This document shows positions 458 through 42,844 of a stretch of DNA of 44,943 bases, one piece after another. Numbering within the stretch: the stretch's first letter is position 1; each line of letters starts with the position of its first letter. The notes beneath the pieces were generated by a model that saw only the letters and a list, made by a program, of their open reading frames with translations, did no database searches and was not told the origin of the DNA. This DNA comes from Capsulimonadales bacterium (GTDB lineage: Bacteria; Armatimonadota; Armatimonadia; Armatimonadales; Armatimonadaceae): positions 1-44,943 of the forward strand of contig JANRLW010000035.1 of assembly GCA_033762295.1 (NCBI GenBank), read 5' to 3'. The position numbers were made by a program, and so were the translations under genes.

Positions 458-579
458 GTTTTGCGAGACAGCTTTCTATATTTTTCGTTTTTGCCTTGAA
501 GAAACGTTCAGGTTCCTATACGCTATCGTTTTCCATCTTCTCATAACGTATAGGAACCATCCAAGGTCCCTCCGGGAGG

Positions 580-1185
580 TCAAATTCCCGAACCAAAAAT
601 CTTCGCACAAGCGCTCTGACAAGCATGCACAACGGCATCGGCTCGAATACCACAAGGTAGTTTCGGTTTTCCGGGTCCTGGCGTGCAACAATCGCCGCAG
701 GCGCTTTGACAACAGGCAAGGGCATCACCTGGATTGCTTTTTCGGCAAGTTTCCGCGAAGTACGCCGCGCAACCGATACAGGCAGTCTGACCGGGGCACG
801 GTCTCCACGGTATGTTTTGTAACTTTTTGCGATCGGCACATCCCCACCAGGTACACGGCACGCACTCCTTGCCCGGTGTCGGCGTACAATCCGTACTGCA
901 TCCCGGTTCCAGACACCAGCCGGGTGACGGATCCGCTGCGGCAGTAACTGAGATGCCCGCGTCCTTGAACTGCTTGGCGACTTCATGGGTGACGCGGTTG
1001 TTGCGCTCCCGGTTTTTCATGGAGGCCGACGCCGCCTGTGCCAGTTGCTCAACGCTGAACACGCCCAAAACTGCCATAGCGGATTGGACACCAATCTTCT
1101 TTAACGCGGCACGACGCGACATCTTTTCCTGTTCAAAACGCGCCCGCGCCTCCACAATGCCTTCCTCATTCATTTCGTCAGACAC
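580..1185 (-). CDS. Twin-arginine-like exported protein with Cys-rich C-terminal half (18 Cys)
   Basis: SRRAALKK motif followed by a hydrophobic segment; 18 Cys after residue ~90; strong RBS (AAGGAGG) upstream. Confidence 0.75.
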   Translation of the reverse strand: MSDEMNEEGIVEARARFEQEKMSRRAALKKIGVQSAMAVLGVFSVEQLAQAASASMKNRERNNRVTHEVAKQFKDAGISVTAAADPSPGWCLEPGCSTDCTPTPGKECVPCTWWGCADRKKLQNIPWRPCPGQTACIGCAAYFAETCRKSNPGDALACCQSACGDCCTPGPGKPKLPCGIRADAVVHACQSACAKIFGSGI

Positions 1186-1208
1186 AGATGCTTCCTCCTT
1201 GGTTGCTG

Positions 1209-1454
1209 TCAGGGAACGATTTTCGTTTTCCCGGTCGTCTCCTCTTCGTCCTTGTCAGTTACGAACCCGGAGATCGGTTCCTCATCGGCAAGTTCGTGTT
1301 CTCGTGTCTGCAATTCGGCTTCTTCTCGTTGCAAAGCGAGAACTCGGGCCGTGACCATCTCCACAAGATACGCGACCTGATCGCGTTGCTCGATGCGGTC
1401 AATCACGGCCTGAGCGACCCGGTCAACAAAGTCGTCGCTGTTATCAAGTAGCAT
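1209..1454 (-). CDS. Small acidic helical hypothetical protein (81 aa)
   Basis: Protein-like amphipathic helix, GGAGA RBS upstream, ends 23 nt before the Cys-rich gene. Confidence 0.65.
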   Translation of the reverse strand: MLLDNSDDFVDRVAQAVIDRIEQRDQVAYLVEMVTARVLALQREEAELQTREHELADEEPISGFVTDKDEEETTGKTKIVP

Positions 1455-1583
1455 AGATTTTCTCCGATACGGAATCTTCGTAGAGTGCCCGTACGAAAGA
1501 GAATATAGGTCAAAAAACCGCAGTAAGGAATGCCAAAATTGGTAAATCTACTTGCTGTCCTTGGTATTTTTTGTAGGGACGTC

Positions 1584-1601
1584 GGGGGGGGGGGGGGGGG
1601 G
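1584..1601. repeat. Homopolymer G18 tract
   Basis: 18 consecutive G in the intergenic region between the LuxR-type gene and the 81-aa gene. Confidence 0.9.
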
Positions 1602-1610
1602 AACACTGGC

Positions 1611-1865
1611 TTAAAATAAGGAATGACAGGGAAACCAGCCTTCGTGCAGTGCCGTCAGAAGCACCTCGGAACGATCCTCCACACCAAGTCGTGCAATCAT
1701 GCTCTTGAACCGACGATCTATCGTATGAGGCGAAAGACAGAGACGGTCCGCGAGCTTGCGCGAGGTGGCAGACCGTATTTCGACCGCTTTGCAAAGCACG
1801 TCCCATTCGGCCTCCGATAGGTCAAGCGACGGCATCGGTACGGCAGTCTTCTTACTGTTGGGCAT
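1611..1865 (-). CDS. Stand-alone LuxR/GerE-type HTH regulator
   Basis: LSEAEWDVL...SRKLADRLCLSPHTIDRRFKSMIARLGVEDRSE matches the LuxR C-terminal HTH pattern; no receiver domain. Confidence 0.8.
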   Translation of the reverse strand: MPNSKKTAVPMPSLDLSEAEWDVLCKAVEIRSATSRKLADRLCLSPHTIDRRFKSMIARLGVEDRSEVLLTALHEGWFPCHSLF

Positions 1866-2146
1866 ATTGTCCCCAATCTAATCCGGCCAAAATATACCGG
1901 CATGTTTTACGAACACTTTCTTTATATATATGCGCAAAATTTATTGATAATCAGCTAGAATTTGGTAGTAGAACAAGAAAATTAGGATCAAACCTTTTTT
2001 TGAGGTAGGTAAACGAGGTCTGATAGAGAACTGCTCGCACAAAGCGGGGACCATGCCTCCCCCCAATCCAAGGGCCATCCCTTCAACCGGACGGATCCGG
2101 TGGCGTCGCTCACTCCATGCCGTCGGGAACCGGTACCGGGACGTCA

Positions 2147-2155
2147 TGGTATACT
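2147..2155 (+). promoter_or_regulatory. Extended -10 promoter element for prfB
   Basis: TGGTATACT (TGn-TATACT) about 70 nt upstream of the prfB start. Confidence 0.5.
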
Positions 2156-2161
2156 GTTTGG

Positions 2162-2190
2162 GCTCCGGCGAGGGTAACCCTCGCCGGAGC
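2162..2190 (+). other. Perfect 13-bp GC-rich hairpin in the prfB 5' UTR
   Basis: GCTCCGGCGAGGG-TAA-CCCTCGCCGGAGC. Confidence 0.8.
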
Positions 2191-2224
2191 GTGCATTCCT
2201 GCACAAGAAGGGAAGTGAAACGTC

Positions 2225-3368
2225 TTGCTGAGTGAACTGTCAAAGGATATGCAGAGGCTTGGTGAGCGCGTCGTAGAGCTGGGTGGTCATCTTTGACATC
2301 ACCCAACGCGAAAAAGAGTTAGCCCTCCTGGAGGCGCAGTCCGAACAACCGGGCCTCTGGGACGATACGGCGCGGGCGCAGGCGGTGATGCGCAAACTGT
2401 CGCGGGTGAAACTGGACGTCCAGCCCTACCGCGAACTGGTCAAGCGTTTCGAGGATGCTCAGGTGCTGCTGGAGATGGCGCTGGCCGAAAAGGACGGCGA
2501 CCAGTTCGAGGCGGAGATCGAGGCCGAACTGAAAGGCATGCTGGCCGACGTGGAAGCGCAGGAGATCAAAGCTCTCCTGTCGGGTCCGCACGATGCCGCC
2601 TCCGCTTATCTTGAATTGAAGCCGGGGGCCGGTGGGACCGAGGCCTGTGACTGGGCACAGATGCTGTTGCGAATGTATCTGCGCTGGGCGCAGGATCACG
2701 GATTCAAGGCGGAGATCGTGGACGAACTGCCGGGGGATGTCGCCGGTATCTCGTCGGCGACCGTGCGCGTGGACGGACCGAACGCCTACGGTTTTTTGAA
2801 GTCCGAGCACGGGGTCCATCGACTGGTGCGCATCTCGCCGTTCAATGCGAACGGCAAGCGGCAGACGTCGTTCGCGGCGGTGGAAGTCGCTCCCCAGATC
2901 GAGGACGACTCGGAGATCGTGATCGATCCGGACGATCTGGAGATCGATACCTATCGCGCGAGCGGCGCGGGCGGCCAGCACGTCAACAAGACGTCCTCGG
3001 CGGTCCGGATCACGCACCGTCCGACCGGTATCGTCGTGCAGTGTCAGAATGAGCGGTCGCAGTTGCAGAACAAAGAGGTCGCGATGAAGATTCTCGCCGG
3101 GCGACTGGCGGAATTGAAGGAGCGCGAGGAGGAGGCCAAAATGGCCGCCATTAAAGGGGAGCAACGCGCGATCGAGTTCGGGAGTCAGATCCGGAACTAT
3201 ACGTTTCAGCCGTACACTCTGGTGAAGGATGTACGGACCGGCGCGGAAAGCGGAGATATACAGCGCGTGATGAACGGGGATATCGACCCGTTTGTGACCG
3301 CCTATCTGCGATGGCGCGCCGGTGAAGGAAGAAGCGGAGACGATGGAACGACAACAGACGACGAATAA
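2225..3368 (+). CDS. prfB: Peptide chain release factor 2, with programmed +1 frameshift at 2291-2297
   Basis: Short frame from TTG 2225 (MLSELSKDMQRLGERVVELGGHL) ends at GGT GGT CAT CTT TGA C. The +1 frame carries the SPF and GGQ motifs of RF2. Confidence 0.97.
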
Positions 3369-4032
3369 GCGTCGCAATTTCCGGAGCGGAGCAGGGATTC
3401 TGATCGGATCTCTGCTGCTGACCGGTCTCGGGGCGACCGTTCTGCCGGTCGGCTCCGCCATCGCCGCTCAGGCGACGATCTCGACAGCGAACGTCCGAAC
3501 CGCCGAAACCGAAGCCGGAAACCTTCTGGCTGACGCGGTTCGTAGCGCGGCGGGGGCGGAGATCGGATTTTTTCCGGCAGCGGCCTTCAAACCGGGCGTC
3601 TCGGTCGCCCGACCGGTCACCGCCGCGCAGGCGGCCACTCTGGTCGACCCGCCCACCGATGTCATCGTCGTGCTGAACCTGCGCGGCGATCAGGTCCTGG
3701 CCGCGCTCGAGCGATCCGTTTCGTTCGCGCCGCAGCCCAGCGCCGGCTTTTTGCAGGTTTCGGGCCTGCGATTTTCTTTCGATGTGCGTAAGGAGAGCCA
3801 GAAACGGGTCTCCAATGTCACCGTCAACGACCGTCCGCTGGAATCGGGCCGGGTCTATAAGGTCGCGACCACCCGGCCCCTCGGCAACGGTCAGCAGGGA
3901 TACGGTCGGGTCTGGGATCGCGCCAGCATCGCGTCCGATACGGGCAAGTCGCTGGAAGCCGCCCTCGCCGATTTCGCGCGCGGCGGAACGCTGTCACCGT
4001 CGCTCGATCGGCGGATCACGCAGACCCCCTGA
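3343..4032 (+). CDS. Secreted protein consisting of a 5'-nucleotidase C-terminal domain only
   Basis: Signal peptide, then ETEAGNLLADAVR...FLQVSGLRFSFD...YKVATT...GQQGY, typical of 5_nucleotid_C. ATG 3343 preferred over GTG 3322. Confidence 0.8.
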   Translation: MERQQTTNKRRNFRSGAGILIGSLLLTGLGATVLPVGSAIAAQATISTANVRTAETEAGNLLADAVRSAAGAEIGFFPAAAFKPGVSVARPVTAAQAATLVDPPTDVIVVLNLRGDQVLAALERSVSFAPQPSAGFLQVSGLRFSFDVRKESQKRVSNVTVNDRPLESGRVYKVATTRPLGNGQQGYGRVWDRASIASDTGKSLEAALADFARGGTLSPSLDRRITQTP

Positions 4033-4040
4033 GGCCCGAA

Positions 4041-4943
4041 GTGCGGCCCGATGAGCGGTCCGATGAGCGGCCCGACGAGGGAGCGATCGAACATGGAATG
4101 GTCGATGGCTCGTCGTCGGGCCGCTTCCGCTTCGATGGCGACCGCGCCTTCGTCGACCTCCGACAACAGACCGATTTCGGCCCCCGCGTTCCCGGAACCC
4201 CCGGACACCGTCAATGCCGCGACTGGCTTCTCGCCGAATGGGAGTCCGTTTGCGGAAACTGCCGGGCGCAGGACTTCCTGGCCGCCCCGCGCGGTCGTCC
4301 CCTGCCGATGACCAATATCCTCTCGGTACTCCGCCCGGAACTCCCCTCCCCGGTCCTGCTCTGCGCCCACTGGGATACCCGTCCCACCGCCGACCGGGAG
4401 CCGGACCCGTCGATGCGTCGACAGCCGATTTGCGGCGCGAACGACGGCGCGTCGGGGGTCGCCGTCCTGCTGCAACTGGCGCGGCATCTGGCCCTTGATC
4501 CGCCGCCGGTCGGCGTTCAGTTCGTCCTGTTCGACGGCGAGGACTACGGGCCGGGCCGGAAGAGTATGTTCCTCGGTTCGCGGCATTATGCCGCCGCGCC
4601 GGTCCTGCCCCGACCCCGGTTCGCGATTCTCCTGGACATGGTCGGCAGGCAGGGACTTCGCCTGCGCCGGGAGTACTTCAGTGAGCGGTTCGCGCCGGAG
4701 GTCAACGATCGCCTCCGGGCATCCGCCGTCGCGCTCGGCCTTCCCGAATACATCGATGAGATCGGAGCGGCGGTGGAGGACGATCATCTGTTTCTGCAGG
4801 CGATCGGATGGCCCGCCGTGGCGCTGATCGATATCGACGACCCGCACTGGCACACGCTCGCGGACACGCCGGAACACTGTTCCCCCCGCTCTCTGGCGGC
4901 GGTCGGGTCGCTGCTGTGGCATCTGCTCCATCAATGCGCGTGA
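4041..4943 (+). CDS. M28 family peptidase (glutaminyl-cyclase-like)
   Basis: AHWDTRP, GANDGASGVA, FDGEDYG, LDMVG, EDDH and HWHT..DT motifs. The true start may be ATG 4098. Confidence 0.88.
   Translation: MRPDERSDERPDEGAIEHGMVDGSSSGRFRFDGDRAFVDLRQQTDFGPRVPGTPGHRQCRDWLLAEWESVCGNCRAQDFLAAPRGRPLPMTNILSVLRPELPSPVLLCAHWDTRPTADREPDPSMRRQPICGANDGASGVAVLLQLARHLALDPPPVGVQFVLFDGEDYGPGRKSMFLGSRHYAAAPVLPRPRFAILLDMVGRQGLRLRREYFSERFAPEVNDRLRASAVALGLPEYIDEIGAAVEDDHLFLQAIGWPAVALIDIDDPHWHTLADTPEHCSPRSLAAVGSLLWHLLHQCA
4043..4078. repeat. 12-bp tandem repeat x3 (GCGGYCCGAYGA)
   Basis: Units at 4043, 4055 and 4067, plus a degenerate unit at 4031. Confidence 0.8.
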
Positions 4944-5004
4944 TGTTCCGCGGAAGGCCTCGCCTCCGACAAAAAAGGAAAGCGGATTTCGTTTGCTCGA
5001 TTTA

Positions 5005-5033
5005 ATGCACTTTTAATGAAATTATGCTATGGT
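5005..5033 (+). promoter_or_regulatory. Putative sigma70 promoter between convergent genes
   Basis: ATGCAC-17 nt-TATGGT with extended TG, in an AT-rich patch. Confidence 0.45.
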
Positions 5034-5039
5034 TGTTTT

Positions 5040-5107
5040 GTGTGATCTCCTTTTCTCTCTCCGTGCTGGGGAAGCGTCGTTTTCAGTAGAATTCGGCGCT
5101 TTTTTTT
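5040..5107 (+). ncRNA. Candidate small RNA with a CU-rich anti-SD-like tract
   Basis: Lies between the promoter-like site and the terminator; contains GATCTCCTTTTCTCTCTCC; no ORF. Confidence 0.4.
5072..5107 (+). terminator. Rho-independent terminator
   Basis: AAGCGTCG...CGGCGCTT stem with a T8 run (5100-5107). Confidence 0.75.
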
Positions 5108-5116
5108 CGTTCGGGG

Positions 5117-6199
5117 TCAGGCGATTTGCAGGTAGCGCAGGAGAAGCCGCATCAGGTGCTCCATCGCCTCCTGGTGCATGATCTCAAAGCCGTGGGAGTT
5201 GTCGGCGGCGAACGCGATCGTCACGGGCCGGGCGCAGAGTCCGCGGGCGGCGGCGCAGGACGCATCCGATCCGCCACGGGTCACCGCCTGCCAGTGCGGC
5301 GAGAGTCCTTCCGCCTGGGCCGCCTCCGCCAGCCGTTCGAGGTCGCGCGGATCGGTCGCCGCGAACGAGTCCGACACCCAGATGGTCGGCATCGCATCGA
5401 TCTCGAACGGCGCGTCGGGCGTGGTCGGCCCGATCTCCAGAGCGACGCAGATCTCCGGACGGTAGTTCTGCATCAGGTATTGCGCCCCCTCGCCGCCCAC
5501 CTCCTCGGAAGAGGTCGCCGCAAAAAGGATCTCCGGACGGTCGCCGAGCCGTTCCAGAGCCATCAGCCAGGTGACCAGATCCGCGCGGTCATCGAGGAAG
5601 TACGAACCGAGGAAACGCCCGCCGAAGTGCCAGAGTCGCCGCCGCTCCCGCGCGAGCACGACCCGACTGCCGGGACGGACCCCCGACCGTTCCAGTTCGC
5701 GCGGCGTTCGCCCCGGCAGAACTCGCACCTGATCCCAGGTGACGGCTCGCCCCTCCCGTACCTGCTGTATGGTCGAGGCAGGCGCGGTCGTATGGATGGA
5801 ACCGAACGACAGGACGGCGGGAACGAACGTCGGGGCGGCGACGGAACCGGCCAGAATCTCCACCGGTCCCTCCCCCCACTTATACGGGTGCGCCCCGCCC
5901 AGCGGCATTACCCGCAGATTCCCGTCGCTCTCCACGCCGGTCACCATCAGGGCGATCTCATCCAGATGGGCGGTCACCAGAATACGCGGACGCTTCGCCC
6001 CCTCCCGAAACGCCGGGTCGCCGACCAGGAGATTCCCTTTCGGATCCTCCCAACTTTGACGGCGCAGAGCGGCGATATAGACAGCAAGCGCGCCGCGAAC
6101 GGCGCCCTCCTGTCCGGGCGGTCCCGGGACGGCGACAAGCTCGCTCAACAGTTCGTGAGAGGATGGAAGAATGGACATGACCGTTGGTTTCCCACCCAT
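5117..6199 (-). CDS. M42 family metallo-aminopeptidase
   Basis: PGPPGQE, AHLDEI, LDDR, EEVG and HGFE motifs. The start may be ATG 6178. Confidence 0.9.
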   Translation of the reverse strand: MGGKPTVMSILPSSHELLSELVAVPGPPGQEGAVRGALAVYIAALRRQSWEDPKGNLLVGDPAFREGAKRPRILVTAHLDEIALMVTGVESDGNLRVMPLGGAHPYKWGEGPVEILAGSVAAPTFVPAVLSFGSIHTTAPASTIQQVREGRAVTWDQVRVLPGRTPRELERSGVRPGSRVVLARERRRLWHFGGRFLGSYFLDDRADLVTWLMALERLGDRPEILFAATSSEEVGGEGAQYLMQNYRPEICVALEIGPTTPDAPFEIDAMPTIWVSDSFAATDPRDLERLAEAAQAEGLSPHWQAVTRGGSDASCAAARGLCARPVTIAFAADNSHGFEIMHQEAMEHLMRLLLRYLQIA

Positions 6200-6202
6200 A
6201 CC

Positions 6203-6625
6203 CTACGACGAGGAAGCCACCTTCCCCTCCCCGGCAACGACCGGGGAAGCGGATTCTCCCGGTACGGAAGACGCGGGGGCGATCCGGGCGGTCGGGTCCT
6301 CGGCGACGGGTTCTTGTTCGTCTTGTTCGAAGGGCAGGAGACGCCACAGGCCCGTTCGAGTCAGCGTCCCCCGCAACTCCTCCGACGGCAGGACCACACA
6401 GCAGACCTTGACCAGACGGGCAACGCGCGCGATCGTGACCAGGGTGTTGATTCCGGCAATCTCGATATGAGACACCGAACGCAAGTCCAGCAGCAGCAGC
6501 GAGGGACGCTCGCCGATCGCCGAGAAGGCGACGTCGCGCAGGCGCAGGATCGATCCCAGATCGATCGCGCCCGTCAGTCGCAGGAGCAGAGAAGCCCCCT
6601 CATATCGCCGCTCAATCTGCAGCAT
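6203..6625 (-). CDS. STAS domain protein (anti-sigma-factor antagonist-like)
   Basis: LRLTGAIDL...LLLDLRSVSHIEIAGINTLV...LTRTGL pattern. The usual phosphoacceptor DSSG is replaced by EIAG. Confidence 0.8.
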   Translation of the reverse strand: MLQIERRYEGASLLLRLTGAIDLGSILRLRDVAFSAIGERPSLLLLDLRSVSHIEIAGINTLVTIARVARLVKVCCVVLPSEELRGTLTRTGLWRLLPFEQDEQEPVAEDPTARIAPASSVPGESASPVVAGEGKVASSS

Positions 6626-6838
6626 GTCGTCGCCAGACCCTTTGCGTTCCGTTATGGATTCGTACGTAATGCCTCGCCGGAATTTCGCTGTCGCGCCATC
6701 GTACCCTGTACGACTCCTTCCGGCAAACCGATAAATGGCTCAGGCACCGGCAGATTCGACCGGCGGCGGTTCCTGCCCGATCGGCGAGCGTACCATCGCC
6801 TCGAATCAGGTACAACCATTCCGTAAGGAGCATACGTT

Positions 6839-7465
6839 ATGGCCAATTCCCTCTCCCCCGCGGCCGTTACCGTCGCCGTTCGCAAGCCGATAAACCATCG
6901 GTTTCTTGTCATGGCGGCCGCCCCGATTCTTTTGCTGGTTCTCGCTATGGCCGCCCTGCGATTCCTGCCGAACGAGGAGGCGGACCCTGAGGCACGGCCT
7001 CGCCTCCGGCGTGTCCGCCTTCCTTCCCGGCCCTTCACTCCGGGTCCGCCGCTTTCCGAAAAATCCCGGCGGGCGATCCGTGACGTGGTTCAAGGTCAAC
7101 TCGACGCTTTCCGCCGCAACGACTACGCGGCGGCGCTTCGCTTCTCCGCCAGCGACTTCCGGGCGACGACCTCTCCGGAACAGTTCCGCGACCTGATTCG
7201 CGCACGGTACACGCCTCTCAGCACCAATGTCCGCGTGTATGTCCGTCCGCCGAGAAGCACGCCGAACGGTGCGAACCTGCTGGTGATCGTCCAGGACAAG
7301 CAGGGCAACCAGTCCGGGTTCTTCTATCAGGTGATTCGAGAGAGGGAAAACTGGCAGATCGCCGGTTGCGCCCCCGCCCCGCTCTATGATCTGGAACCGC
7401 CCGAACGTCGCCGCCGGAACGGTTTCGCGCCGTCGCCCACCGACTCACAGTACCGCCTGCACTGA
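6839..7465 (+). CDS. Membrane-anchored DUF4864-like protein
   Basis: N-terminal TM segment; IRDVVQGQLDAFRRNDYAAALRFSA...FRDLIRARY...WQIAGC pattern. Confidence 0.75.
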   Translation: MANSLSPAAVTVAVRKPINHRFLVMAAAPILLLVLAMAALRFLPNEEADPEARPRLRRVRLPSRPFTPGPPLSEKSRRAIRDVVQGQLDAFRRNDYAAALRFSASDFRATTSPEQFRDLIRARYTPLSTNVRVYVRPPRSTPNGANLLVIVQDKQGNQSGFFYQVIRERENWQIAGCAPAPLYDLEPPERRRRNGFAPSPTDSQYRLH

Positions 7466-7503
7466 TTCCTGACCGATTCCTGACCGATCCCTGACCGATT
7501 CCT
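7464..7503. repeat. 11-bp tandem repeat (GATTCCTGACC) x3.6
   Basis: Units at 7464, 7475 and 7486 and a partial unit at 7497, starting inside the stop codon of the upstream gene. Confidence 0.85.
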
Positions 7504-7592
7504 CGTCGCAGGCCGGTGCAGGAATCTCCGAACGCCGCCGCGTATGAAACGATAACACCTGTTTTCCCGGTATCCGGAAGGATTATACGAGT

Positions 7593-8351
7593 ATGGCGCT
7601 CTGCCACCTGAACTATTTCAGCCACGTCCTGCAAAAGCAGTCTGCCGCATTTATCATTGTGCCGGAAACCGGAACACCACCTTACCCGGTGTTATACCTG
7701 CTCCATGGTCTCTCGGACGACTATACGATCTGGCTTCGCCAAACCTCCGTGGAACGGTACGTCGCCGACCTCCCGCTGATGGTGGTTCTGGCCGACGGCG
7801 GACGCGGCTTCTACTGCGATGCGGAGGAAGGGTTCGCCTACGGCACGGCGATCGGCGTCGAACTGCCGGAGCGGATCGAGCGCACCTTTCCGGCAATGCG
7901 GACACGTGAGGGACGCTGCCTGGCCGGCCTCTCGATGGGCGGATACGGCGCCACCCGATTGGCGCTGACCTATCCGGATCGCTTCGCCGCCGCCGTCTCT
8001 CACTCCGGCGCGATGGGTTTCGGACATTTCCCGGTCGGTCACGACGCCCGGCCCTACCCCGCCGAGTTTCGCCGCATTCTCGGACCGACCCCCACCGGCG
8101 GGCCGAACGATCTCTTTGCTCTGGCCGAGAACGTCGCTCCCGCCGACCGCCCCGCCCTGCGGATCGATTGCGGGGTCGATGACTTCCTGATCGAACCCAA
8201 CCGGCAGTTCCACGCCCATCTGGAGTCCATCGGCTACCCGCATGAGTACGAGGAGTTTCCCGGTGCGCATACGTGGGACTACTGGGATGTCCACATTCGG
8301 GAAGCGATCGCCTTCCTGCGCGGTCAACTGCTCGATAAAACCGGAGCATAG
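7593..8351 (+). CDS. Alpha/beta-hydrolase esterase (FrmB/XynC-like)
   Basis: YPVLYLLHGLSD, GLSMGG nucleophile elbow, DCGVDD and GAHTWDYW. Confidence 0.9.
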   Translation: MALCHLNYFSHVLQKQSAAFIIVPETGTPPYPVLYLLHGLSDDYTIWLRQTSVERYVADLPLMVVLADGGRGFYCDAEEGFAYGTAIGVELPERIERTFPAMRTREGRCLAGLSMGGYGATRLALTYPDRFAAAVSHSGAMGFGHFPVGHDARPYPAEFRRILGPTPTGGPNDLFALAENVAPADRPALRIDCGVDDFLIEPNRQFHAHLESIGYPHEYEEFPGAHTWDYWDVHIREAIAFLRGQLLDKTGA

Positions 8352-20261: not shown

Positions 20262-21452
20262 TCAGGGCGTCGGCGAGGGCGTCGTGGCGGCCTTTTCGAC
20301 CCGCGCAGCATCGGACGGCGACAGTTTGGTCCTTGCCAGAGCGACCAGTTCCCGGACGGAATCCGGCTTCCCGGCGCGGGCGGCGCGTTTCACCAGCAGG
20401 AGGAACGTCTCCGCCGTTCCTTCAAAGCCGATCAGTTTGTCCCGAATGGCGTCGCCCTCGGTTTTCCGATCCGCGCCGATCGCCGCCTCGTAGAATGTTG
20501 CGCCGCTCTCCACTGCCTCCCGGCGGAAATCCCGGATCGCGCCGGGCGGGAAACCGCTGGCGGAGGTCGTCATCCGGCATCGCTCGATCGTCTCGTCCGT
20601 CTTTTGTATGACATCCATCGCGGCGACCAGATCGGCATACCGCTTTTTCTCGATCAATACCGGCGCGATCTCCTCCAGCAGGACCTCGGCGGTCGGCGTT
20701 TTCTTGTTCGGCAGGGCGTCATATACGATCAGCGTTTTTTCCGATTCACCGAGGCTCCGGTTGTAAGCGACGAAATCCATCGCGATATCGAAGTCTGCCG
20801 TCCCCTTTCGGAGGCGGTCCAGAGCGGCGTCGCGGCGACGGACCAGCGCCGTCCGGGCCGCCGGGTAGGTTTCGGACAGTTGCAGAATGTCGGCAAGCAG
20901 GAACGACAGACGGACACCGTAGAACGCCCGGTCGTAGGCCAATCCCTTATCGAGGCACCAGAGAAACTCGGTCAATCCTTCGGCGGTTCGTCCCTTCCGA
21001 ATCAGAGCGCGGGCGTAGTCCATTCGCGCCATCGGATTGTTGACGCCCTCCGCCTGCCACTTCCGCTTCGCTCGCGCGACGCTGTCCAGCCCGGCCAGAG
21101 CCAGGTTGGCCTCCTCGATGAAGTTCTTCGGGGCCTGAAAGCCGACCAGGCGGTCGATCTCACGCCCGTCGGGCCGCAGCAGGAGGATCGTGGGGTAGGC
21201 ATCGATCCGGTAACGCCGCGCCAGATCGACTTCCTTTTCGGCGTCGATCTTGCGGGAGACGGTTTTCGCGACGAGCCAGCGGCGAACGGCCGGGTCTTTC
21301 CAGGTCTCGGCGTCCAGCTTCTTGCAGGGACCGCACCAGGTGGTGTAGAAGTCGATCAGTACCACCTTTTTGGTCCGTGCCGCCCGGACACAGGCCGAAC
21401 GGACATCCCCCGGCGCGAACGGCTCTTCCGACACTCGTTCCTTTTGCCTCAT
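20262..21452 (-). CDS. Thioredoxin-family protein with helical C-terminal extension
   Basis: DFYTTWCGPCK and YPT cis-Pro, followed by a TPR-like region. Confidence 0.82.
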   Translation of the reverse strand: MRQKERVSEEPFAPGDVRSACVRAARTKKVVLIDFYTTWCGPCKKLDAETWKDPAVRRWLVAKTVSRKIDAEKEVDLARRYRIDAYPTILLLRPDGREIDRLVGFQAPKNFIEEANLALAGLDSVARAKRKWQAEGVNNPMARMDYARALIRKGRTAEGLTEFLWCLDKGLAYDRAFYGVRLSFLLADILQLSETYPAARTALVRRRDAALDRLRKGTADFDIAMDFVAYNRSLGESEKTLIVYDALPNKKTPTAEVLLEEIAPVLIEKKRYADLVAAMDVIQKTDETIERCRMTTSASGFPPGAIRDFRREAVESGATFYEAAIGADRKTEGDAIRDKLIGFEGTAETFLLLVKRAARAGKPDSVRELVALARTKLSPSDAARVEKAATTPSPTP

Positions 21453-33636: not shown

Positions 33637-34947
33637 ATGGAATCCGCCGCAGGTCATGGCGGGGTCGGTATTCTGCTGACCCTGTTTATCGTTTACGTCG
33701 CCGCTCAGATCGGCGCGGAGGTCGCCGGTCGCCTGCGCCTGCCGTCGGTCGTGGGCGAGATCGCCGCCGGCTGTCTGGTCGGGCCGTCCGTGCTCAACTG
33801 GGTGCATATCAACGAGCCTCTGGAAGTGCTGGCCGAGATCGGCGCGGTCCTGTTGCTCTTCTCGGTGGGCCTGGAAACACGTCTGGCGGATCTACGCCGG
33901 GTGGGCCGGTCGGCCGCTCTCGTCGGAGTGCTCGGGGTGATTTTTCCGTTCGCCCTGGGCGCGTTCTGGGCCTATTTTTCCGGCTTTGAGACGGCGAAGG
34001 CGCTGTTCGTCGCCGCCGCGTTCGTCGCGACGTCCGCGGGCATCACGGCGCGCGTGCTGTCCGATCTGGGCGTTCTCGGCCGAACCGAGTCGCGCGTCAT
34101 CCTGGGCGCGGCGGTGATCGACGATATCCTTGCCATGCTGCTTCTGGGCGTCGTGACCGCCCTTCAGGGGGATGGCGGGACGCGTTCGATCGACTGGGTG
34201 CAACTCGGGCTGGTGCTGGTGCAGGCAATCGGCTTTATCGTCATCGTCGCTCTGGTCGGCACCCGTATCATTCGCAAACGCTCCCGTCTGCTCGATCTGC
34301 CGATCCACCCGCTGTCCCCTCTGACGCTGTCTCTCGCACTCTGTCTCGGGTTGGCGGCGGCGGCGGCCAACCTGGGATTGGCGGCGATCATCGGCGCATT
34401 CCTCGCCGGGACGGTGCTGGCGGAATCGCAGCAACGACTGGCGCTGGAGCGGCAGATTCAGCCGATCATGGCGTTCGTCGTGCCTTTTTTCTTTGTCGTC
34501 ACCGGCGCACAGATCGATTTGAAGGCTCTGTCCAACGGACCGGCCTTACTTTCGCTGGGCATCGTCACGGCCCTCGCGGTGGTCAGTAAACTGGTGGGCG
34601 GCGGACTGGGTGCGCTTTCCCTGGGGAAGAGACGCGCTCTGATCGTCGGCTGGGGAATGGTCCCTCGTGGTGAGGTGGGGATCATCGTGGCCAGCCTGGG
34701 CCGGGACGCCGGTGTGTTTACCGGACGGACGTACGCCTTGATTATCGCGATGTCGCTTCTGACATCGGTGATCGCTCCGCCCGTACTCAATTTTCTTCTG
34801 GCGAAGGAAAAGGCGAAGGATTCGGAACCTCCGCCGTCCCCGGACACGAGCGAGGACGGCCATGAGGACGGTTCGGAACCGTTCCATCTCCATCGGGTGG
34901 ACGAGTGCGGATACGACCGTCCCGCCGCGGAGGTCAGGCGCTCCTGA
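33637..34947 (+). CDS. Cation:proton antiporter (CPA2/NapA-like)
   Basis: LFSVGLET, ATSAGIT, AAVIDD, IIGAF and GMVPRGEVG. Confidence 0.93.
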   Translation: MESAAGHGGVGILLTLFIVYVAAQIGAEVAGRLRLPSVVGEIAAGCLVGPSVLNWVHINEPLEVLAEIGAVLLLFSVGLETRLADLRRVGRSAALVGVLGVIFPFALGAFWAYFSGFETAKALFVAAAFVATSAGITARVLSDLGVLGRTESRVILGAAVIDDILAMLLLGVVTALQGDGGTRSIDWVQLGLVLVQAIGFIVIVALVGTRIIRKRSRLLDLPIHPLSPLTLSLALCLGLAAAAANLGLAAIIGAFLAGTVLAESQQRLALERQIQPIMAFVVPFFFVVTGAQIDLKALSNGPALLSLGIVTALAVVSKLVGGGLGALSLGKRRALIVGWGMVPRGEVGIIVASLGRDAGVFTGRTYALIIAMSLLTSVIAPPVLNFLLAKEKAKDSEPPPSPDTSEDGHEDGSEPFHLHRVDECGYDRPAAEVRRS

Positions 34948-36161
34948 TGTCCGACCCCGTCTCCGCTCCCGTCTCCGCCCCGCTCCGGGAGATCGCCGGT
35001 GTGTTCCTCCGCCTGGGCTTTACGGCCTTCGGCGGACCGGCGGCGCACATCGCCCTGATGAAGGAGGAGTTCGTCGTCCGGCGAAAATGGCTGACGGAGG
35101 CGGAGTTTCTCGATCTGCTGGGGGCGACCAACCTGATTCCGGGACCGAACTCCACGGAGATGGCGATCCATCTCGGCTACCGGCGCGGCGGTTGGATCGG
35201 TCTGATCGTTGCCGGCCTCTGCTTCCTCCTCCCGGCGGCCCTGATCGTTTCCGGGTTCGCCTGGGCGTACGTCCGGTTCGGCGCGTTACCCACGGTCGCG
35301 GGTCTGCTTCAGGCGGTCAAACCGGTCGTGGTGGCGGTGGTTCTGCAGGCGATGGCGGGGCTGGTTCGTCCCGCTCTGAAAAACGTGCCGCTGACGGTCC
35401 TTGGCATCGCCGTGCTGGGCGCGGCGCTTTTCGGTCTCGCCCCCCCTTACCTCCTGTTCGGCGCGGGCTTCCTCACCGGTCTCGCGCGCTGGTGGCAGGG
35501 CGAGTCGTCCCCGGTGCGGCGTTCGCCGGGTTCCCTGCTGGCCCTGCTCGCCGGTGTGGCGGGAATGATCGGCTTGCCCGTCCTGCTGACCTTCGTTTCG
35601 TTCTCTTCCCGAGGAGCGGTTCCGCTCTCCTCCGGAGCGCTGTTCGCCTTCTTTCTGAAGGTCGGCGCGACCCTCTACGGCAGCGGTTACGTGCTTCTTT
35701 CCTTCCTGCGGGAGGAGCCGGTACTGCGCTGGCGGTGGCTGACCGAGGGGCAACTGCTCGACGCGGTCGCCGTCGGGCAGGTGACGCCGGGGCCGGTCTT
35801 CACGACGGCGACATTTATCGGATACGTTCTCAGCGGACCCTTCGGAGCGTTCCTGGCGACCCTTGGCATCTTTCTGCCCTCGTTCGTCTTCGTCGCCCTC
35901 AGTGGTCCGCTGATCCCCCGCCTGCGACAATCGCCGGTCATGGCGGCGTTCCTCGATGGGGTCAATGTCGCCGCTCTCGCACTCCTGGCGACGGTTGTCT
36001 GGGAGACGGCCCGGACCGCGTTCACCGGCCCGTTCACCGTCTCGCTGGCCATCCTGAGCGCGGTTCTCCTGATCCGTTACCGCGTCAACTCCGCCTGGTT
36101 GTTGCTGGCGGCGGCGGGGTTCGGCGCGGTCTGCGGATGGCTCGGTCTTCGCGTCTCCTGA
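34947..36161 (+). CDS. chrA: Chromate efflux transporter (long-chain CHR)
   Basis: LGFTAFGGP, PGPNS, YGSGYV and QVTPGP; TGATG coupling to the antiporter gene. Confidence 0.93.
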   Translation: MSDPVSAPVSAPLREIAGVFLRLGFTAFGGPAAHIALMKEEFVVRRKWLTEAEFLDLLGATNLIPGPNSTEMAIHLGYRRGGWIGLIVAGLCFLLPAALIVSGFAWAYVRFGALPTVAGLLQAVKPVVVAVVLQAMAGLVRPALKNVPLTVLGIAVLGAALFGLAPPYLLFGAGFLTGLARWWQGESSPVRRSPGSLLALLAGVAGMIGLPVLLTFVSFSSRGAVPLSSGALFAFFLKVGATLYGSGYVLLSFLREEPVLRWRWLTEGQLLDAVAVGQVTPGPVFTTATFIGYVLSGPFGAFLATLGIFLPSFVFVALSGPLIPRLRQSPVMAAFLDGVNVAALALLATVVWETARTAFTGPFTVSLAILSAVLLIRYRVNSAWLLLAAAGFGAVCGWLGLRVS

Positions 36162-37466: not shown

Positions 37467-38150
37467 ATGCCTGCCGCGACCCGCTTTGTGACCCTCAGTT
37501 TCGACGACGGTTTTCGGACGTCGTCCGTCCGGACCGCCGAACTGTACGAACGGTTCGGCCTGCGCGCGGAGTTCCATGTCGTCGCCACCTACGGACTTCG
37601 CGATCCGGTCACCTTCGGCGACTGGGCTCTGTGGAACGATCTGGCGGCGCGCGGCCATGTTATCCACCCCCACGGATACGACCATACCAACAAGACGAGC
37701 CTCCCGACGGAACGGGCGCAGGATTCGATTCTGCAATGTCTGGAGGAGTTTCAGGCCCACCTGCACGGTTTCGATCCGGCGCAGGCGATCTTCGCGTTTC
37801 CGTACAATGCGTCCACTCCGGAACTCGAGGCATGGCTTCCAACCGTCGTAAGGGCGTTCCGGACCGGCCACACCGCGCTTAACCCCCTGCCGTCCGCAGG
37901 CACGGTGCGGCTGACGACCGGCGGATGGGAGGACGCCGAACCGTGGCTGGATCGGTGTACCGAGGACCTTCTGGCCCTGAACGAAGGCTGGCTCATCTAC
38001 TGTGCGCACGGCCTGGACGGCGAGGGTTGGGGGCCGTTGCGACACGACTATCTCGAACGTCTGCTGGAAAGGCTGGTCGCGACGGAGAACCTGGAAATAC
38101 TGCCGGCCCGTGACATTCTCCGCCGCTTCGATGCCGCTCCGGAAGCCTAG
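37467..38150 (+). CDS. Polysaccharide deacetylase family (CE4-like) protein
   Basis: LSFDDG, HGYDH and FAFPY. Confidence 0.85.
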   Translation: MPAATRFVTLSFDDGFRTSSVRTAELYERFGLRAEFHVVATYGLRDPVTFGDWALWNDLAARGHVIHPHGYDHTNKTSLPTERAQDSILQCLEEFQAHLHGFDPAQAIFAFPYNASTPELEAWLPTVVRAFRTGHTALNPLPSAGTVRLTTGGWEDAEPWLDRCTEDLLALNEGWLIYCAHGLDGEGWGPLRHDYLERLLERLVATENLEILPARDILRRFDAAPEA

Positions 38151-38836
38151 TCGGCTTCCAGCGCCTTGCGGATCGCCGCCTCCACCGTCGCCGGACGGAC
38201 TTTCCCGGACCAGGCGTCGATGATCCGCCCGTCGCGCACCAGCAGGACGGTCGGCAGCGATTTGACGCCCCACTGTTTCCAAACGTCGCCCGAATCGATG
38301 AGCATCGGGTAACTGAACCGGGTCTTGCTTTTCGCCAGGAAGGGCGCGACCTTTTTTGCGCCTTCCTCATCGATGGAGATGCCGACCACGGAGAAACGCC
38401 CGTCCGCGCCGAGCCGTTCGTGCAGTTTTTGCAGTTCGGGCATGGCTTTGACGCACGGTCCGCACCAGGTCGCCCAGAAATCCACGAGCAGCACCCGGTT
38501 TTTCATCAGTTGCTCCGACGTGATCGTCTCGCCGGCAACGGTTTTCAGGGCGAACGCCGGGGCGGGCCGGGGCAATGGGGCGGGCAGGTAGGCGTCCGGA
38601 TTCTTGACGAAGGCATCGATCTCCCGTCGGTTGCAGAAGTAATAGGTCTTGCCTCCGTACGCGACGCCGCCCGCCGGTTTCTCCTCGCCATGCTCCTCGC
38701 CGCCCTGGGAGCAGACGAGGCAGACGGCCTTTTTCGGCAGATTTTCCCGGACCATGACCGGGCGATCCTGCGCCCGCGCCATCGTGGACAGCGAACACAG
38801 GCAGGCGGCGGCGATGGCCGCTCCGATTTCTCTCAT
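38147..38836 (-). CDS. Exported TlpA-family redoxin with N-terminal YHS/TRASH metal-binding domain
   Basis: Signal peptide; CLVC...YGGKTYYFC...FVKNPDAY (YHS); DFWATWCGPC and LPT (TlpA). Confidence 0.88.
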   Translation of the reverse strand: MREIGAAIAAACLCSLSTMARAQDRPVMVRENLPKKAVCLVCSQGGEEHGEEKPAGGVAYGGKTYYFCNRREIDAFVKNPDAYLPAPLPRPAPAFALKTVAGETITSEQLMKNRVLLVDFWATWCGPCVKAMPELQKLHERLGADGRFSVVGISIDEEGAKKVAPFLAKSKTRFSYPMLIDSGDVWKQWGVKSLPTVLLVRDGRIIDAWSGKVRPATVEAAIRKALEAD

Positions 38837-38848
38837 GATCGTTCCCTT

Positions 38849-39538
38849 TCAGAAGTTTTGCGCGAAGGCGAACCCGATTCGCCGATTGAACGGCGCCACC
38901 AGCGAAAAGGAGCGGCCCGTTCCGTCGAACCAGGAAAGCGTCGTATGACCGTATTTGCCGTCGCACATCGGAATCAGCACCAGGTCGTCTCGCAGGGCGA
39001 CGCTCGCCCCGAACGGCACCAGCACCTCACGCCCCCATTCCGAGTAGGACAGCCCGATATACGGGGCGAATCGTCCGCTCTCCCCGCCGATCTGTTTCTG
39101 GGCGGTGACGAAATAGGCCATTCCGGACGGGGTTCCGATCCGGTCGCTGGAGAACCCGGCCACGATTCCGGGGCGACGGTCATCTTCCGTCCGCACGAAC
39201 CAGTTGCCGATAGGATTGGCCTTTTCTTCCGGCGCGAGCGGATTGTACTCGATCCCGAGTTGCAGACGCGGCGAGAGCCGCGCCGACAGAGTCGTGCGCC
39301 AGCGGGGCCGTTCCTGCCGGGTATCGGCATAGCGCTGTGCGAACTGCCATCGTCCCTGAACGCCGCTCGCACGGAGCGGCGACCCTTCGCCGGGTCAGCC
39401 CGTTCACGGGGGAAGGGTCGACCGCAGTCGGTCTCGCTCATCGGGTCCCTGAGCGAACGCGGCGACGGGCAGCAGGAAGACACCGCCGAAGGTAACGAGA
39501 ACGACGGCAACGACGGCAGGACCGGACATGGTCCGCAT
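38849..39538 (-). CDS. Predicted selenoprotein (229 aa): signal peptide, UxxU motif (Sec45, Sec48), beta-barrel-like domain ending in Phe
   Basis: GAGG RBS and ATG 39538. In-frame TGA at 39404-39406 and 39395-39397 (CCG TGA ACG GGC TGA CCC). The same frame then stays open to 38849, with alternating beta-strand patterns and C-terminal FAFAQNF. Confidence 0.72.
39361..39381 (-). promoter_or_regulatory. Candidate bacterial SECIS hairpin
   Basis: mRNA CGCCGCUC-CGUGC-GAGCGGCG: 8-bp stem, loop with GU. The loop starts 21 nt after the second UGA and 30 nt after the first. Confidence 0.55.
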
Positions 39539-39570
39539 GGTTTTCCTCGGGATGCGGGGAGCGAAAGACG

Positions 39571-39915
39571 TCATTTGCCGGAGACGAAGGCCGCGATCCC
39601 GGCAAGGGCTTCGGGCCGGACTCGACAACGGACGACTCGCCCTTGCCGTTCGGTGGTGATCAGGCCCGCCGCTCGCAACTCGTTCAGGTGGTGTGTCAGA
39701 GTGGACGGAGCGCAGGGAACCACACAGCGGATACGGCAGGCGGTCACGCCGCCCGCCCGGTCGTCGTCGCCTTCGGCGTTACAGCAGGTTCCCTGCTCGG
39801 TATCGTAACCGCAGGTCGGCCCGCAGCAACGGATGCACCGGAAGACCGCCAGACGGGTCGGATCGGCGAGCGCCTTAAAGATCGCGGAAAGGTCGAGTGT
39901 GGGTTCGTCGGCCAT
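39571..39915 (-). CDS. ArsR/SmtB family repressor with Cys-rich insertion (10 Cys)
   Basis: FKALADPTRL and STLTHHLNELRAAGLI...RQGR; insertion CIRCCGPTC...GTCC. Alternative start ATG 39918. Confidence 0.92.
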   Translation of the reverse strand: MADEPTLDLSAIFKALADPTRLAVFRCIRCCGPTCGYDTEQGTCCNAEGDDDRAGGVTACRIRCVVPCAPSTLTHHLNELRAAGLITTERQGRVVRCRVRPEALAGIAAFVSGK

Positions 39916-39920
39916 CATTT

Positions 39921-39961
39921 CCTTTCGATGGCTATCGAAATATTCGACAACCATCGAAAGG
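39921..39961. promoter_or_regulatory. Palindromic operator, probably bound by the ArsR protein
   Basis: CCTTTCGATGG-19 nt-CCATCGAAAGG inverted repeat built from two imperfect TTCGA-N6-TCGAA palindromes; it overlaps the -10 and the RBS. Confidence 0.75.
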
Positions 39962-39987
39962 TTATCATGCCTCGCCGGGTTTGTCCA
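39959..39987 (-). promoter_or_regulatory. Sigma70 promoter of the arsR operon
   Basis: TGGACA-17 nt-TAACCT with extended TG on the minus strand. Confidence 0.6.
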
Positions 39988-42013: not shown

Positions 42014-42844
42014 GTGAATCTTCAACAGCTATTAAATTTTTCCTGGGTTACCGATGCCACGGCCTGGGTCGGTCTTCTGACGCTGGTCGCGCTGGAGATC
42101 GTTCTGGGGATCGACAATATCGTTTTTATTTCGATTCTGTCCGGGAAGCTTCCGGAGGCGGAACAACCACGCGCCCGCAAACTGGGACTGATTCTGGCGG
42201 TGATTCCACGCCTTCTTTTGCTCCTGTTCCTTCCGATCGTTCTCAGTCTGGACCAGCCGATCATCCGGCTGCCGTTCGAACTTCCGGGGAACCACGAGGG
42301 GCCGCTCGGCCTCTCGATCCAGGACCTGATCATCTTTGTCGGCGGTCTCTTCCTGCTGGCGAAGGCGACACGCGAGATCCATCATAACCTGGAGGGCGAG
42401 GAGCATCACGTCGATGAAGCCGGTGTCGTAACGAAAAAAACGGCCTCCTTTTCGTCGGTCATTGCCTCCGTCATGCTTCTGAACATCGTCTTCTCGCTGG
42501 ACTCGATCATTACGGCGATCGGGATGGTGCCCAAGGAACAGATCACGGTCATGGTGCTGGCCGTCCTCGTCTCCACGGCGATCATGGCGTTTGCGGTCAA
42601 CTCGGTCAGCAAGTTCGTCGAGCGACACCCGACGGTCAAGATGCTCGCTCTCTCGTTCCTGTTGCTGATCGGGATGACGCTTGTCGCCGAGGGCCTGCAT
42701 GTCGAGATTCCGAAGGGTTACGTCTACTTCGCGATGGGCTTTTCCGTCTTCGTCGAGATGCTCAACCTCCGGGCGGCGAAAAGCAAGAAGACCGCGCCGG
42801 TCCAGCTTCGCACCACGTCGCCCGATCAGTATCTGCGTCCCTGA
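42014..42844 (+). CDS. TerC family membrane protein
   Basis: LEIVLGIDN, KATREIH, VFSLDSIITAIG, LALSFL and PKGYVYFAM.FS..VE.LN. Confidence 0.94.
   Translation: MNLQQLLNFSWVTDATAWVGLLTLVALEIVLGIDNIVFISILSGKLPEAEQPRARKLGLILAVIPRLLLLLFLPIVLSLDQPIIRLPFELPGNHEGPLGLSIQDLIIFVGGLFLLAKATREIHHNLEGEEHHVDEAGVVTKKTASFSSVIASVMLLNIVFSLDSIITAIGMVPKEQITVMVLAVLVSTAIMAFAVNSVSKFVERHPTVKMLALSFLLLIGMTLVAEGLHVEIPKGYVYFAMGFSVFVEMLNLRAAKSKKTAPVQLRTTSPDQYLRP

Follow-up and report, generated by a model that had tools for sequence, protein, structure and literature searches.

We analysed a 44,943-nt stretch of DNA, contig JANRLW010000035.1 of a Capsulimonadales bacterium (hereafter the window), and found on its minus strand a gene for a small, predicted exported beta-barrel protein whose reading frame is crossed by two TGA codons. 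On comparative evidence these TGAs are recoded and did not arise by chance, since 80/80 homologous loci share both of them and the codons lay outside the search query. Selenocysteine (Sec, U) is the strongly predicted and most likely residue at one or both of the UGAs, giving a U-x-x-U motif. The conserved core of the system is the barrel gene together with the gene for YHS-TlpA, a protein in which a YHS/TRASH domain is fused to a TlpA-like thioredoxin domain. The gene for an ArsR regulator and its operator, which precede the pair in the window, are an Armatimonadaceae addition to this core.

Conservation and decoding of the TGA pair

In order to collect homologous loci, GTDB was scanned with a query that started past the second TGA, so that neither TGA codon took part in the selection. 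Of 598 listed pattern matches 596 were confirmed, giving a total of at least 596, and the best 80 of these loci (labelled L001 onward) were examined; two pairs among the 80 derive from the same genome each. They belong to Armatimonadota, Acidobacteriota, Eisenbacteria, Poribacteria, Latescibacterota and others. The closest relatives of the window barrel among the listed matches are Armatimonadaceae, and the homologue of Armatimonas rosea (protein P0009) is 70% identical to the window protein. A plasmid collection gave no match. An in-frame TGA-xx-xx-TGA was present in all 80 loci, across several phyla and with no mosaic of TGC or TGT; this is not a family-wide rate, since the query opened with the SECIS (selenocysteine insertion sequence)-encoded peptide and the 80 loci are biased towards SECIS-bearing members.

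When both TGAs are read through, the product consists of a signal peptide, the segment P-P-U-T-G-U and a 181-residue remainder, 229 residues in total. The Pro upstream of the motif is invariant and is written with four synonymous codons. Signal peptides were read from the sequence as hydrophobic stretches and not by a predictor; such a stretch lies upstream of the TGAs in the same frame in 74 of 79 sequences, the window among them, compared with 1 and 0 in the other two frames. The genes terminate with TGA (45), TAA (20) or TAG (14; n = 79) at almost the same residue, and TGA is thus a normal stop in these hosts. These results bear on the idea that the TGAs are true stops of a pseudogene or split gene, or that the hosts use genetic code 4 or 25. 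Public proteins annotated from after the TGAs would fit true stops, as would homologue P0069, which reads C-V-G-W at the motif. However, in every locus of the set the two stops fall on the CxxC positions, with the invariant Pro and the in-frame signal-like stretch upstream, and TGA itself terminates more than half of these genes (45/79). We regard true stops or a variant code as extremely improbable.

Cysteine-containing homologues provide a further comparison. Their C-A-G-C segment aligns gap-free to UxxU and is followed by the same 15-residue spacer to strand 1, and PTCAGC was found in 47 of 48 hits of the Cys clade. In a quick tree of 72 rows, rooted at the midpoint and with about half of the loci omitted, the Cys forms make up one clade (Shimodaira-Hasegawa-like approximate likelihood ratio support 97) except for P0069. 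The taxonomy of this clade was taken from three source names, two Fimbriimonadaceae and one Armatimonadetes. Conserved in-frame TGAs with coding conservation on both sides, Cys homologues and a bacterial SECIS (bSECIS) are all present, as in silico selenoprotein criteria ask. A preliminary description of the window had presented the middle gene as that of an exported UxxU protein, and the conserved TGA pairs, the in-frame signal-like stretch and the Cys homologues support this reading.

Database entries of the family are shortened. A protein search with the downstream part allowed lengths of 99-317 aa, yet each of its 42 hits measures 104-175 aa, which indicates that databases start the barrel gene after the TGAs. 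In a wider set of 192 protein hits sorted by rule, the start lies beyond the motif in 161, many of which are no more than fragments. Of the others, 12 have CxxC, 4 carry a signal and lack CxxC, and 15 reach further upstream but show neither. We also noted that 17 of the 192 start with M/V-S/R-G just past the motif position (P0045, P0053, P0056, P0061, P0165 and P0171 among them); these are probably more truncated UxxU forms in distant clades.

A hairpin that begins 14 nt past the second UGA is the candidate SECIS. Over 45 sequences its stem is 94.2% paired, with 9 cells changed on both sides, and in most homologues it has an 8-bp stem and a G-G/U-G loop. None of 500 shuffles equalled this covariation, in a control that ignores relatedness, and controls slid along the alignment were 40-68% paired. 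Codon entropy, taken over 8 conserved positions that follow the UGAs, was 0.88 bits, versus 1.75 bits over 22 positions in the barrel; the sequences are non-independent and one position is a two-codon Ser box. The bSECIS criteria in the available part of PMC13188914 are a loop of 3-9 nt, a stem of 4-16 bp, G within the first two loop positions, a distance of 16-37 nt from the UGA and a minimum free energy of at most -7.5. The window hairpin fits this model, having a 5-nt loop with G second, 7 bp and -23.5 kcal/mol (43-nt segment); its optional N1-N2 loop pair is C-C. A second SECIS hairpin placed right after the second UGA was considered and rejected, as it was 58.7% paired over the same 45 sequences versus 94.2% for the distal one.

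Decoding genes were found at few loci. A selB gene lies 2.6-3.0 kb downstream of the barrel in 3 of the 80 loci, all related Armatimonadota, and scores above cut-off in the two that were scanned. The window contains no selB or tRNA-Sec, and Rfam found nothing in the window and nothing in 14 loci. Two points speak against Sec: selA, selC and selD were not found in the window or in the scanned parts of the flanks, and ARAGORN found 2 tRNAs in the 80 loci, neither of them for Sec. A third comes from the available text of PMC13582414, where a UGA-reading tRNA-ReC accompanies UXXU hydrogenases in 5/5 Armatimonadota genomes; it is enriched in UXXU genomes, with the caution that one or both UGAs may be Cys. 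The same barrel system could therefore have one or both UGAs read as Cys by the SelB-dependent tRNA-ReC (SelC*), giving CxxU, UxxC or CxxC. This alternative concerns the residue only and is compatible with any mechanism discussed below. Besides tRNA-ReC it has the natural CxxC forms in its favour. On the other hand, a canonical tRNA-Sec was found alongside tRNA-ReC (PMC13582414, available part), and if Cys served equally well the TGAs should have drifted to Cys codons, while they are fixed across many phyla in a set that was, as said, selected towards SECIS-bearing members. We consider decoding as Cys improbable, though a serious alternative, and retain Sec as the predicted residue.

Gene pair, regulator and neighbourhood

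The features of the operon are collected in Table 1. All three genes lie on the minus strand, with gaps of 32 nt between ArsR and barrel and 12 nt between barrel and YHS-TlpA. The three co-directional genes, the gap lengths and the motifs of the preliminary description agree with coordinates and translations.

Table 1. Features of the barrel operon and its control region, in window coordinates
Feature	Position	Strand	Remarks
ArsR gene	39571..39918	-	Start at 39918 or 39915
UxxU barrel gene, predicted selenoprotein	38849..39538	-	229 aa if both TGAs are read through
Exported YHS/TRASH-TlpA fusion gene	38147..38836	-	229 aa
Putative -35 hexamer, TGGACA	39982..39987	-	Read by eye; TTGACA at the same place in L001
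Putative extended -10, TG-A-TAACCT	39959..39967	-	Read by eye; abuts operator; spacer to -35 of 17 nt
ArsR operator, two TTCGA-N6-TCGAA palindromes (39943-39958, 39924-39939)	39924..39958	.	Pattern scan and homologous loci
Sec-type signal peptide, residues 1-29	39452..39538	-	Ends AFA-Q; read from sequence; in-frame hydrophobic stretch in homologues
U45-T-G-U48 (predicted), TGA codons 39406-39404 and 39397-39395	39395..39406	-	80/80 loci; gap-free against C-A-G-C
SECIS-type hairpin, 7-bp stem, CGUGC loop	39362..39380	-	Loop begins 30 and 21 nt after the two UGAs
Predicted 12-stranded beta-barrel, residues 64-229, C-terminal Phe	38852..39349	-	AlphaFold2 pLDDT ~90 over barrel
YHS/TRASH domain, C39, C42, C68, E72	38582..38731	-	CLVC...YYFC; Pfam match below cut-off; orthologue alignment
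TlpA/ResA-like thioredoxin domain, WC125-G-P-C128	38150..38569	-	PF00578 and PF08534 above cut-off

The YHS-TlpA gene lies directly downstream of the barrel gene in 52 of the 73 loci that have at least 700 nt of downstream sequence. By group, the pair was found in 13/13 Armatimonadaceae/Armatimonadia and 39/45 other loci, and in 0/13 Poribacteria and 0/2 Chthonomonads. The partner has an export signal, a thioredoxin fold and WCxxC, the features of TlpA/ResA-like proteins, as well as a YHS-like domain, in line with the earlier view of the third gene as an exported TlpA fused to a YHS/TRASH domain. It scores below the cut-off of the TlpA equivalog NF047696 (58.8 vs 230 bits). Among orthologues the CxPC of the TlpA domain is invariant (48/48) and a signal-like stretch is present in 48 of 53. 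The YHS Pfam score is 22.7 bits in the window, below the cut-off of 30.3, and 39 bits in the orthologue of L048. The three Cys of the YHS domain are invariant (48/48), while at the fourth ligand position 40 of 53 have Cys and 13 have Glu, as does the window protein. The YHS/TRASH pattern given in the available part of PMC4626032 has four ligands, Cys or Asp followed by three Cys, and one tested YHS responds to copper. The domain is also found fused to the barrel: in L038 YHS is joined to the UxxU barrel itself, and YHS occurs in 43 of 48 Cys-clade hits. With both adjacent YHS-TlpA genes and YHS fusions, three of which were scanned and lack a thioredoxin domain, YHS is the most constant partner of the barrel. 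As side observations, the partner in L053 has lost most of YHS, and a gene upstream of the barrel in L052 (L052:1772-2551, plus strand) contains W-P-Y-T-TGA in the reading frame of a TlpA domain. The latter was seen in this one locus only and is possibly a further selenoprotein.

The ArsR gene is distributed differently. Using a profile of 91 homologues, which remote ArsRs could escape, we found ArsR beside the barrel in 7 of the 16 loci from Armatimonadaceae/Armatimonadia and in none of the 58 from elsewhere, each with at least 700 nt upstream. The three genes had been put forward as one operon, with a check of its synteny across genomes; the check holds for barrel and YHS-TlpA and fails for ArsR. 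The window ArsR has a winged-helix ArsR domain (NF033788, 64 bits vs a cut-off of 55) and a palindromic operator overlapping its own promoter, as expected of ArsR/SmtB proteins. Its six Cys (C27, C31, C44, C60, C64 and C68, numbered from 39915) are near-invariant, each being present in 67-72 of 72 close homologues. The protein falls below the cut-off of every characterised class: Rv2640c (46.9 vs 155), CmtR (19.1 vs 150), BigR (14 vs 155), TsoR (20 vs 115) and PRK10141 (24.7 vs 97).

The earlier proposal of a single promoter and operator ahead of the operon stands for the operator. TTCGA-N6-TCGAA occurs twice in the window versus 0.16 expected, a number reached in 2 of 100 shuffles, and lies just upstream of ArsR in 6/6 homologous loci with upstream DNA. 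The promoter is less firm: it was read by eye, and a consensus promoter scan did not call it. A -10-like hexamer just ahead of the operator site is present in the same six loci. A scan found no minus-strand terminator between the upstream epimerase gene (end 39992) and the promoter, and transcription could possibly run into the operon from the epimerase gene for this reason.

The chromate transporter gene chrA (34905-36161) and a TerC-family gene (42014-42844) had been noted nearby in separate transcription units, and this is correct: each is about 2 kb from the operon on the plus strand. Linkage to either was rejected, since 0 of 80 homologous loci carry them. For the deacetylase, epimerase, PNPOx, YqeY and HisJ genes a link to the barrel was likewise rejected (0/80 each), as was one for the CPA2 antiporter (2/80). 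The antiporter and chromate transporter genes (33637-36161, plus strand) are, like the TerC gene, ordinary neighbours. Elsewhere in the window, the minus strand encodes another thioredoxin-domain protein (20262-21452) with WCGPC, a long helical C-terminal part and no in-frame TGA, and, by the left end where GC is low, a Cys-rich 201-aa open reading frame (ORF; 580-1185) with a twin-arginine-like leader.

Fold and possible role of the barrel

Two AlphaFold2 models show a 12-stranded barrel with a predicted local distance difference test score (pLDDT) of ~90 and an N-terminal tail with ~50 or lower. The barrel strands alternate hydrophobic and polar faces, and a terminal Phe is present in 77 of 79 sequences. 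With its signal peptide, even strand count, amphipathic strands and C-terminal aromatic residue, the protein is very probably exported and folded as a small outer-membrane barrel, as judged from the models. Conserved polar residues of the barrel include R69, E97, E118, D132, R133, D193 and H198; some Arg, Asp and Glu residues do not vary at all, and neither does the loop SSDRIG. The top structure matches were FapF, EstA, KdgM and COG4313 (Z 15.7-15.8, root-mean-square deviation (rmsd) 2.6-3.0 over 155-167 residues, identity 8-13%). A sequence search of the PDB with the barrel gave unrelated hits only, the best with E 0.07. His-rich insertions occur in barrel loop 2 of P0102, P0111, P0120, P0321 and P0324. 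A divergently transcribed paralogue of the barrel was found in L006 (2023-2700, minus strand; E 3e-22 to the family profile); it has a signal peptide and G-U-P-L-U-P, and probably represents a second UxxU subfamily.

Outer-membrane barrels usually begin with the N-terminus on the periplasmic side. Alignments to plugged barrels start at the UxxU segment (model residues 11-19) and the spacer is fixed even in the Cys forms, which together hint that the tail enters the pore. We tentatively put forward, as a somewhat doubtful reading, a channel plugged by a diselenide/diselenol switch, in which the Sec pair in the lumen would bind or gate a soft metal and the dedicated YHS-TlpA would reset it. If true, this would amount to a porin gated by selenium, and a metal relay based on Sec at the outer membrane of many diderm phyla, that is hidden because annotation stops at the UGAs.

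More broadly, we propose that the barrel and YHS-TlpA form a relay for a soft metal (of the Cu/Ag, Zn/Cd or Hg type) across the outer membrane, a reading to which we give about an even chance. SelB, with one SECIS hairpin, would recode both UGAs into the U-x-x-U pair. This selenol pair, tethered by 15 residues to the periplasmic end where strand 1 begins and probably folded into the pore as a plug, would capture the ion and exchange it with the Cys-rich YHS/TRASH domain, as synteny and the fusions suggest. The TlpA domain may keep the selenols and the YHS thiols reduced in the oxidising periplasm, by analogy with TlpA, which reduces ScoI and CoxB before copper loading (PMC6669012, available part). 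Reduction of a diselenide by TlpA is plausible on the same analogy. In Armatimonadaceae the six-Cys ArsR, bound at TTCGA-N6-TCGAA, would free the operon once ion or oxidant accumulates. Derepression, together with the efflux genes under the same operator, would favour detoxification or export over uptake.

Metal genes accompany some loci. Of the 80 loci, 5 have CusA/CzcA pumps, among them three of Armatimonas and one each of Eisenbacteria and Krumholzibacteriota, and 4 have P1B ATPases, two of these at the 10-kb edge. In L003 (~500-8074, plus strand) a second ArsR operator, a Cys-rich small ORF, a YtkA/cupredoxin RND adaptor, an RND permease and a TolC-type gene lie directly upstream of arsR. 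An exported HMA-like CxxU protein is encoded in 2/80 loci, L007 and L008, within a run diverging from the ArsR operator. The preliminary description had inferred a soft metal such as Hg, As, Cu or Se/Te. The metal theme is supported by the YHS ligands, by the YHS-barrel fusions and by the metal genes that share the operator in Armatimonas, with the His-rich insertions of barrel loop 2 on the same side, and is not supported for As, Se or Te specifically.

A number of observations weigh against the relay. Metal genes are near the barrel in only 10 of 80 loci, several of them close relatives and with no random-locus control, and 70 of 80 have none. No further recurring partner appeared among 215 neighbouring ORFs, which were chosen by a rough heuristic with 12 Poribacteria loci, L010 and L011 omitted. 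An adjacent YHS-TlpA is absent in 21 of 73 loci, including 13/13 Poribacteria, and in four Armatimonas loci (L004-L007) it is without signal peptide. The three Cys-clade fusions scanned have YHS and no thioredoxin domain (3/3). At least two full-length homologues, P0079 and P0143, have a signal peptide without CxxC, and some family members thus seem to lack the motif. The UxxU segment has low confidence in both AlphaFold2 models. ArsR proteins can, moreover, also sense persulfide or peroxide (PMC11672702, available part). A complex prediction for YHS-TlpA and the barrel from residue 49 onward, and thus without the UxxU tail, scored 0.00 and carries no weight either way.

One alternative is a redox relay, in which electrons from TlpA pass to the UxxU pair in or through the pore, and oxidants such as disulfides or persulfides are reduced there, at the cell surface or the outer membrane, with YHS as a structural or docking site. 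UxxU or CxxC with a dedicated CxPC thioredoxin makes a classic relay, the sensing of persulfide or peroxide by some ArsRs agrees with it, and the low-confidence N-tail, when structures are aligned, falls on the lumen helix or plug of autotransporters, FapF and COG4313. Yet the barrel fusions carry YHS and not TlpA, and the Armatimonas operator region is shared with metal-efflux and HMA-type genes; we think a redox relay unlikely.

A further alternative is a redox-gated porin for a small solute, in which a diselenide/dithiol plug opens or shuts a channel of KdgM/COG4313 size and YHS-TlpA sets the gate by metal or redox state. The nearest folds are indeed small-solute channels and plugged barrels, and the invariant barrel residues, the SSDRIG loop and the fixed spacer length would be in keeping with such a gate. 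A shared fold does not show function, though, and no catabolic or transport gene recurs among the 215 neighbours. We would be rather surprised if this were the role of the protein. Uptake or reduction of a selenium, tellurium or arsenic oxyanion is a still poorer candidate. Basic barrel residues could pass anions, selB is near the barrel in three related loci, and some ArsR homologues bear a generic arsenic-responsive source label. Against this, chrA and TerC are absent throughout (0/80), no ars or ter gene was found among the 215 neighbouring ORFs apart from one MIP channel in L023, selB linkage is confined to one lineage, and the ArsR source labels are automatic.

Several further observations were made around the loci. 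The exported HMA/MerP-CopZ-like protein of L008 (2777-3250, minus strand) and its L007 counterpart have C-P-T-U and a downstream hairpin, and score below all NCBIfam cut-offs. When the loci were scanned for further recurring Sec motifs, only this HMA CPTU pair looked real among 459 candidates, the rest being shadow frames. In both loci the HMA selenoprotein gene and a Cys-rich small ORF flank the gene of an unannotated protein with a signal-like start and no Pfam or NCBIfam match (L007:520-1014 and L008:3283-3942, minus strand); it looks like another beta-rich outer-membrane protein. The Cys-rich small ORF of L003 has relatives in L007, L008 and L015. In L042, a locus without YHS-TlpA, a nosD-like copper-binding gene and an ABC permease (nos-type cluster) lie 1.2-7.4 kb downstream, and msrA lies upstream.

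Relation to known systems

Using Pfam and NCBIfam (June 2026), the window barrel protein gave no match in either at E 0.1. Among 37 family members there were only three weak, unrelated family matches (E 0.087 or worse), and seven further homologues had none in the barrel region. No fitting row is present in the available part of the 119-family prokaryotic selenoprotein table of PMC13188914, and the available texts of deep-Sep (PMC12013277), SelCysML (PMC13745706) and BSepDB (PMC13326102) do not mention the family. We found no description of it in the open literature.

Barrels of the GSU2204/MtrB-PioB and TonB-dependent receptor types are much larger than a 12-strand barrel. Proteins of the former type (NF041027) and of the FCYXU type of the latter (NF049945) are likewise Sec-bearing outer-membrane barrels (PMC13188914, Table 1, available part). 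They have one Sec each, in contrast to the two predicted on the N-terminal tail of the ~165-residue, 12-strand window barrel, and neither model matches the window protein. The UxxU metal-binding family NF041115 and the MerP/CopZ-type HMA selenoproteins share with it the two-Sec UxxU and a presumed soft-metal role, but are small soluble domains (74-position model) and do not match the barrel protein.

FapF, COG4313, KdgM/NanC and autotransporter translocators have the same 12-strand fold at 8-13% identity. YjbH-domain proteins came up in one of four Atlas rows listed, a cluster with 83% PF06082 YjbH (score 0.96); the window barrel has no Pfam YjbH match. We know of no UxxU tail in any of these barrels, YjbH-domain ones included. 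The Tso operon, for which NCBIfam lists the ArsR-type TsoR (NF045707) and the selenoproteins TsoA/B/C/X/Y, seems to provide a precedent for an ArsR beside selenoprotein genes. The window ArsR is well below the TsoR cut-off, as given above, and no Tso family matches the barrel.

There is also a likeness to PcoB, a small outer-membrane barrel with a disordered N-terminal tail of metal ligands and a periplasmic partner from the same operon (PMC12509749, available part). The structural match to PcoB (rmsd 4.7 over 157 residues, Z 8.1) is much poorer than that to the 12-strand channels, and the sequences do not match. PcoB has a His/Met tail and a multicopper oxidase partner (PcoA), whereas the window protein has Sec/Cys, no His/Met cluster and a YHS-TlpA partner. 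With these differences and no Pfam or NCBIfam match it does not belong to the PcoB family, but it may work like PcoB. The TlpA domain resembles Bradyrhizobium TlpA, a periplasmic thioredoxin that keeps metal-ligand Cys of ScoI and CoxB reduced until copper is loaded (PMC6669012). The Bradyrhizobium protein is anchored in the membrane and works in cytochrome oxidase assembly, in contrast to the YHS-fused window protein with its cleavable-looking signal.

If the predictions hold, an apparently unlisted double-Sec family is added to the ~119 known or predicted prokaryotic selenoprotein families, and Sec is placed in a small pore of the outer membrane, for which there is little precedent. The family is widespread (at least 596 GTDB matches), and its recognition would correct a systematic truncation of these proteins in databases. 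It also offers a test case for how one SECIS decodes two UGAs three codons apart, as Sec or as tRNA-ReC Cys, and for what Sec offers metal handling in an oxidising envelope, with the natural Cys versions as a built-in control. Selenoproteins, UxxU motifs and Sec-bearing barrels are each known; what is apparently new is the family and its pairing with YHS-TlpA.

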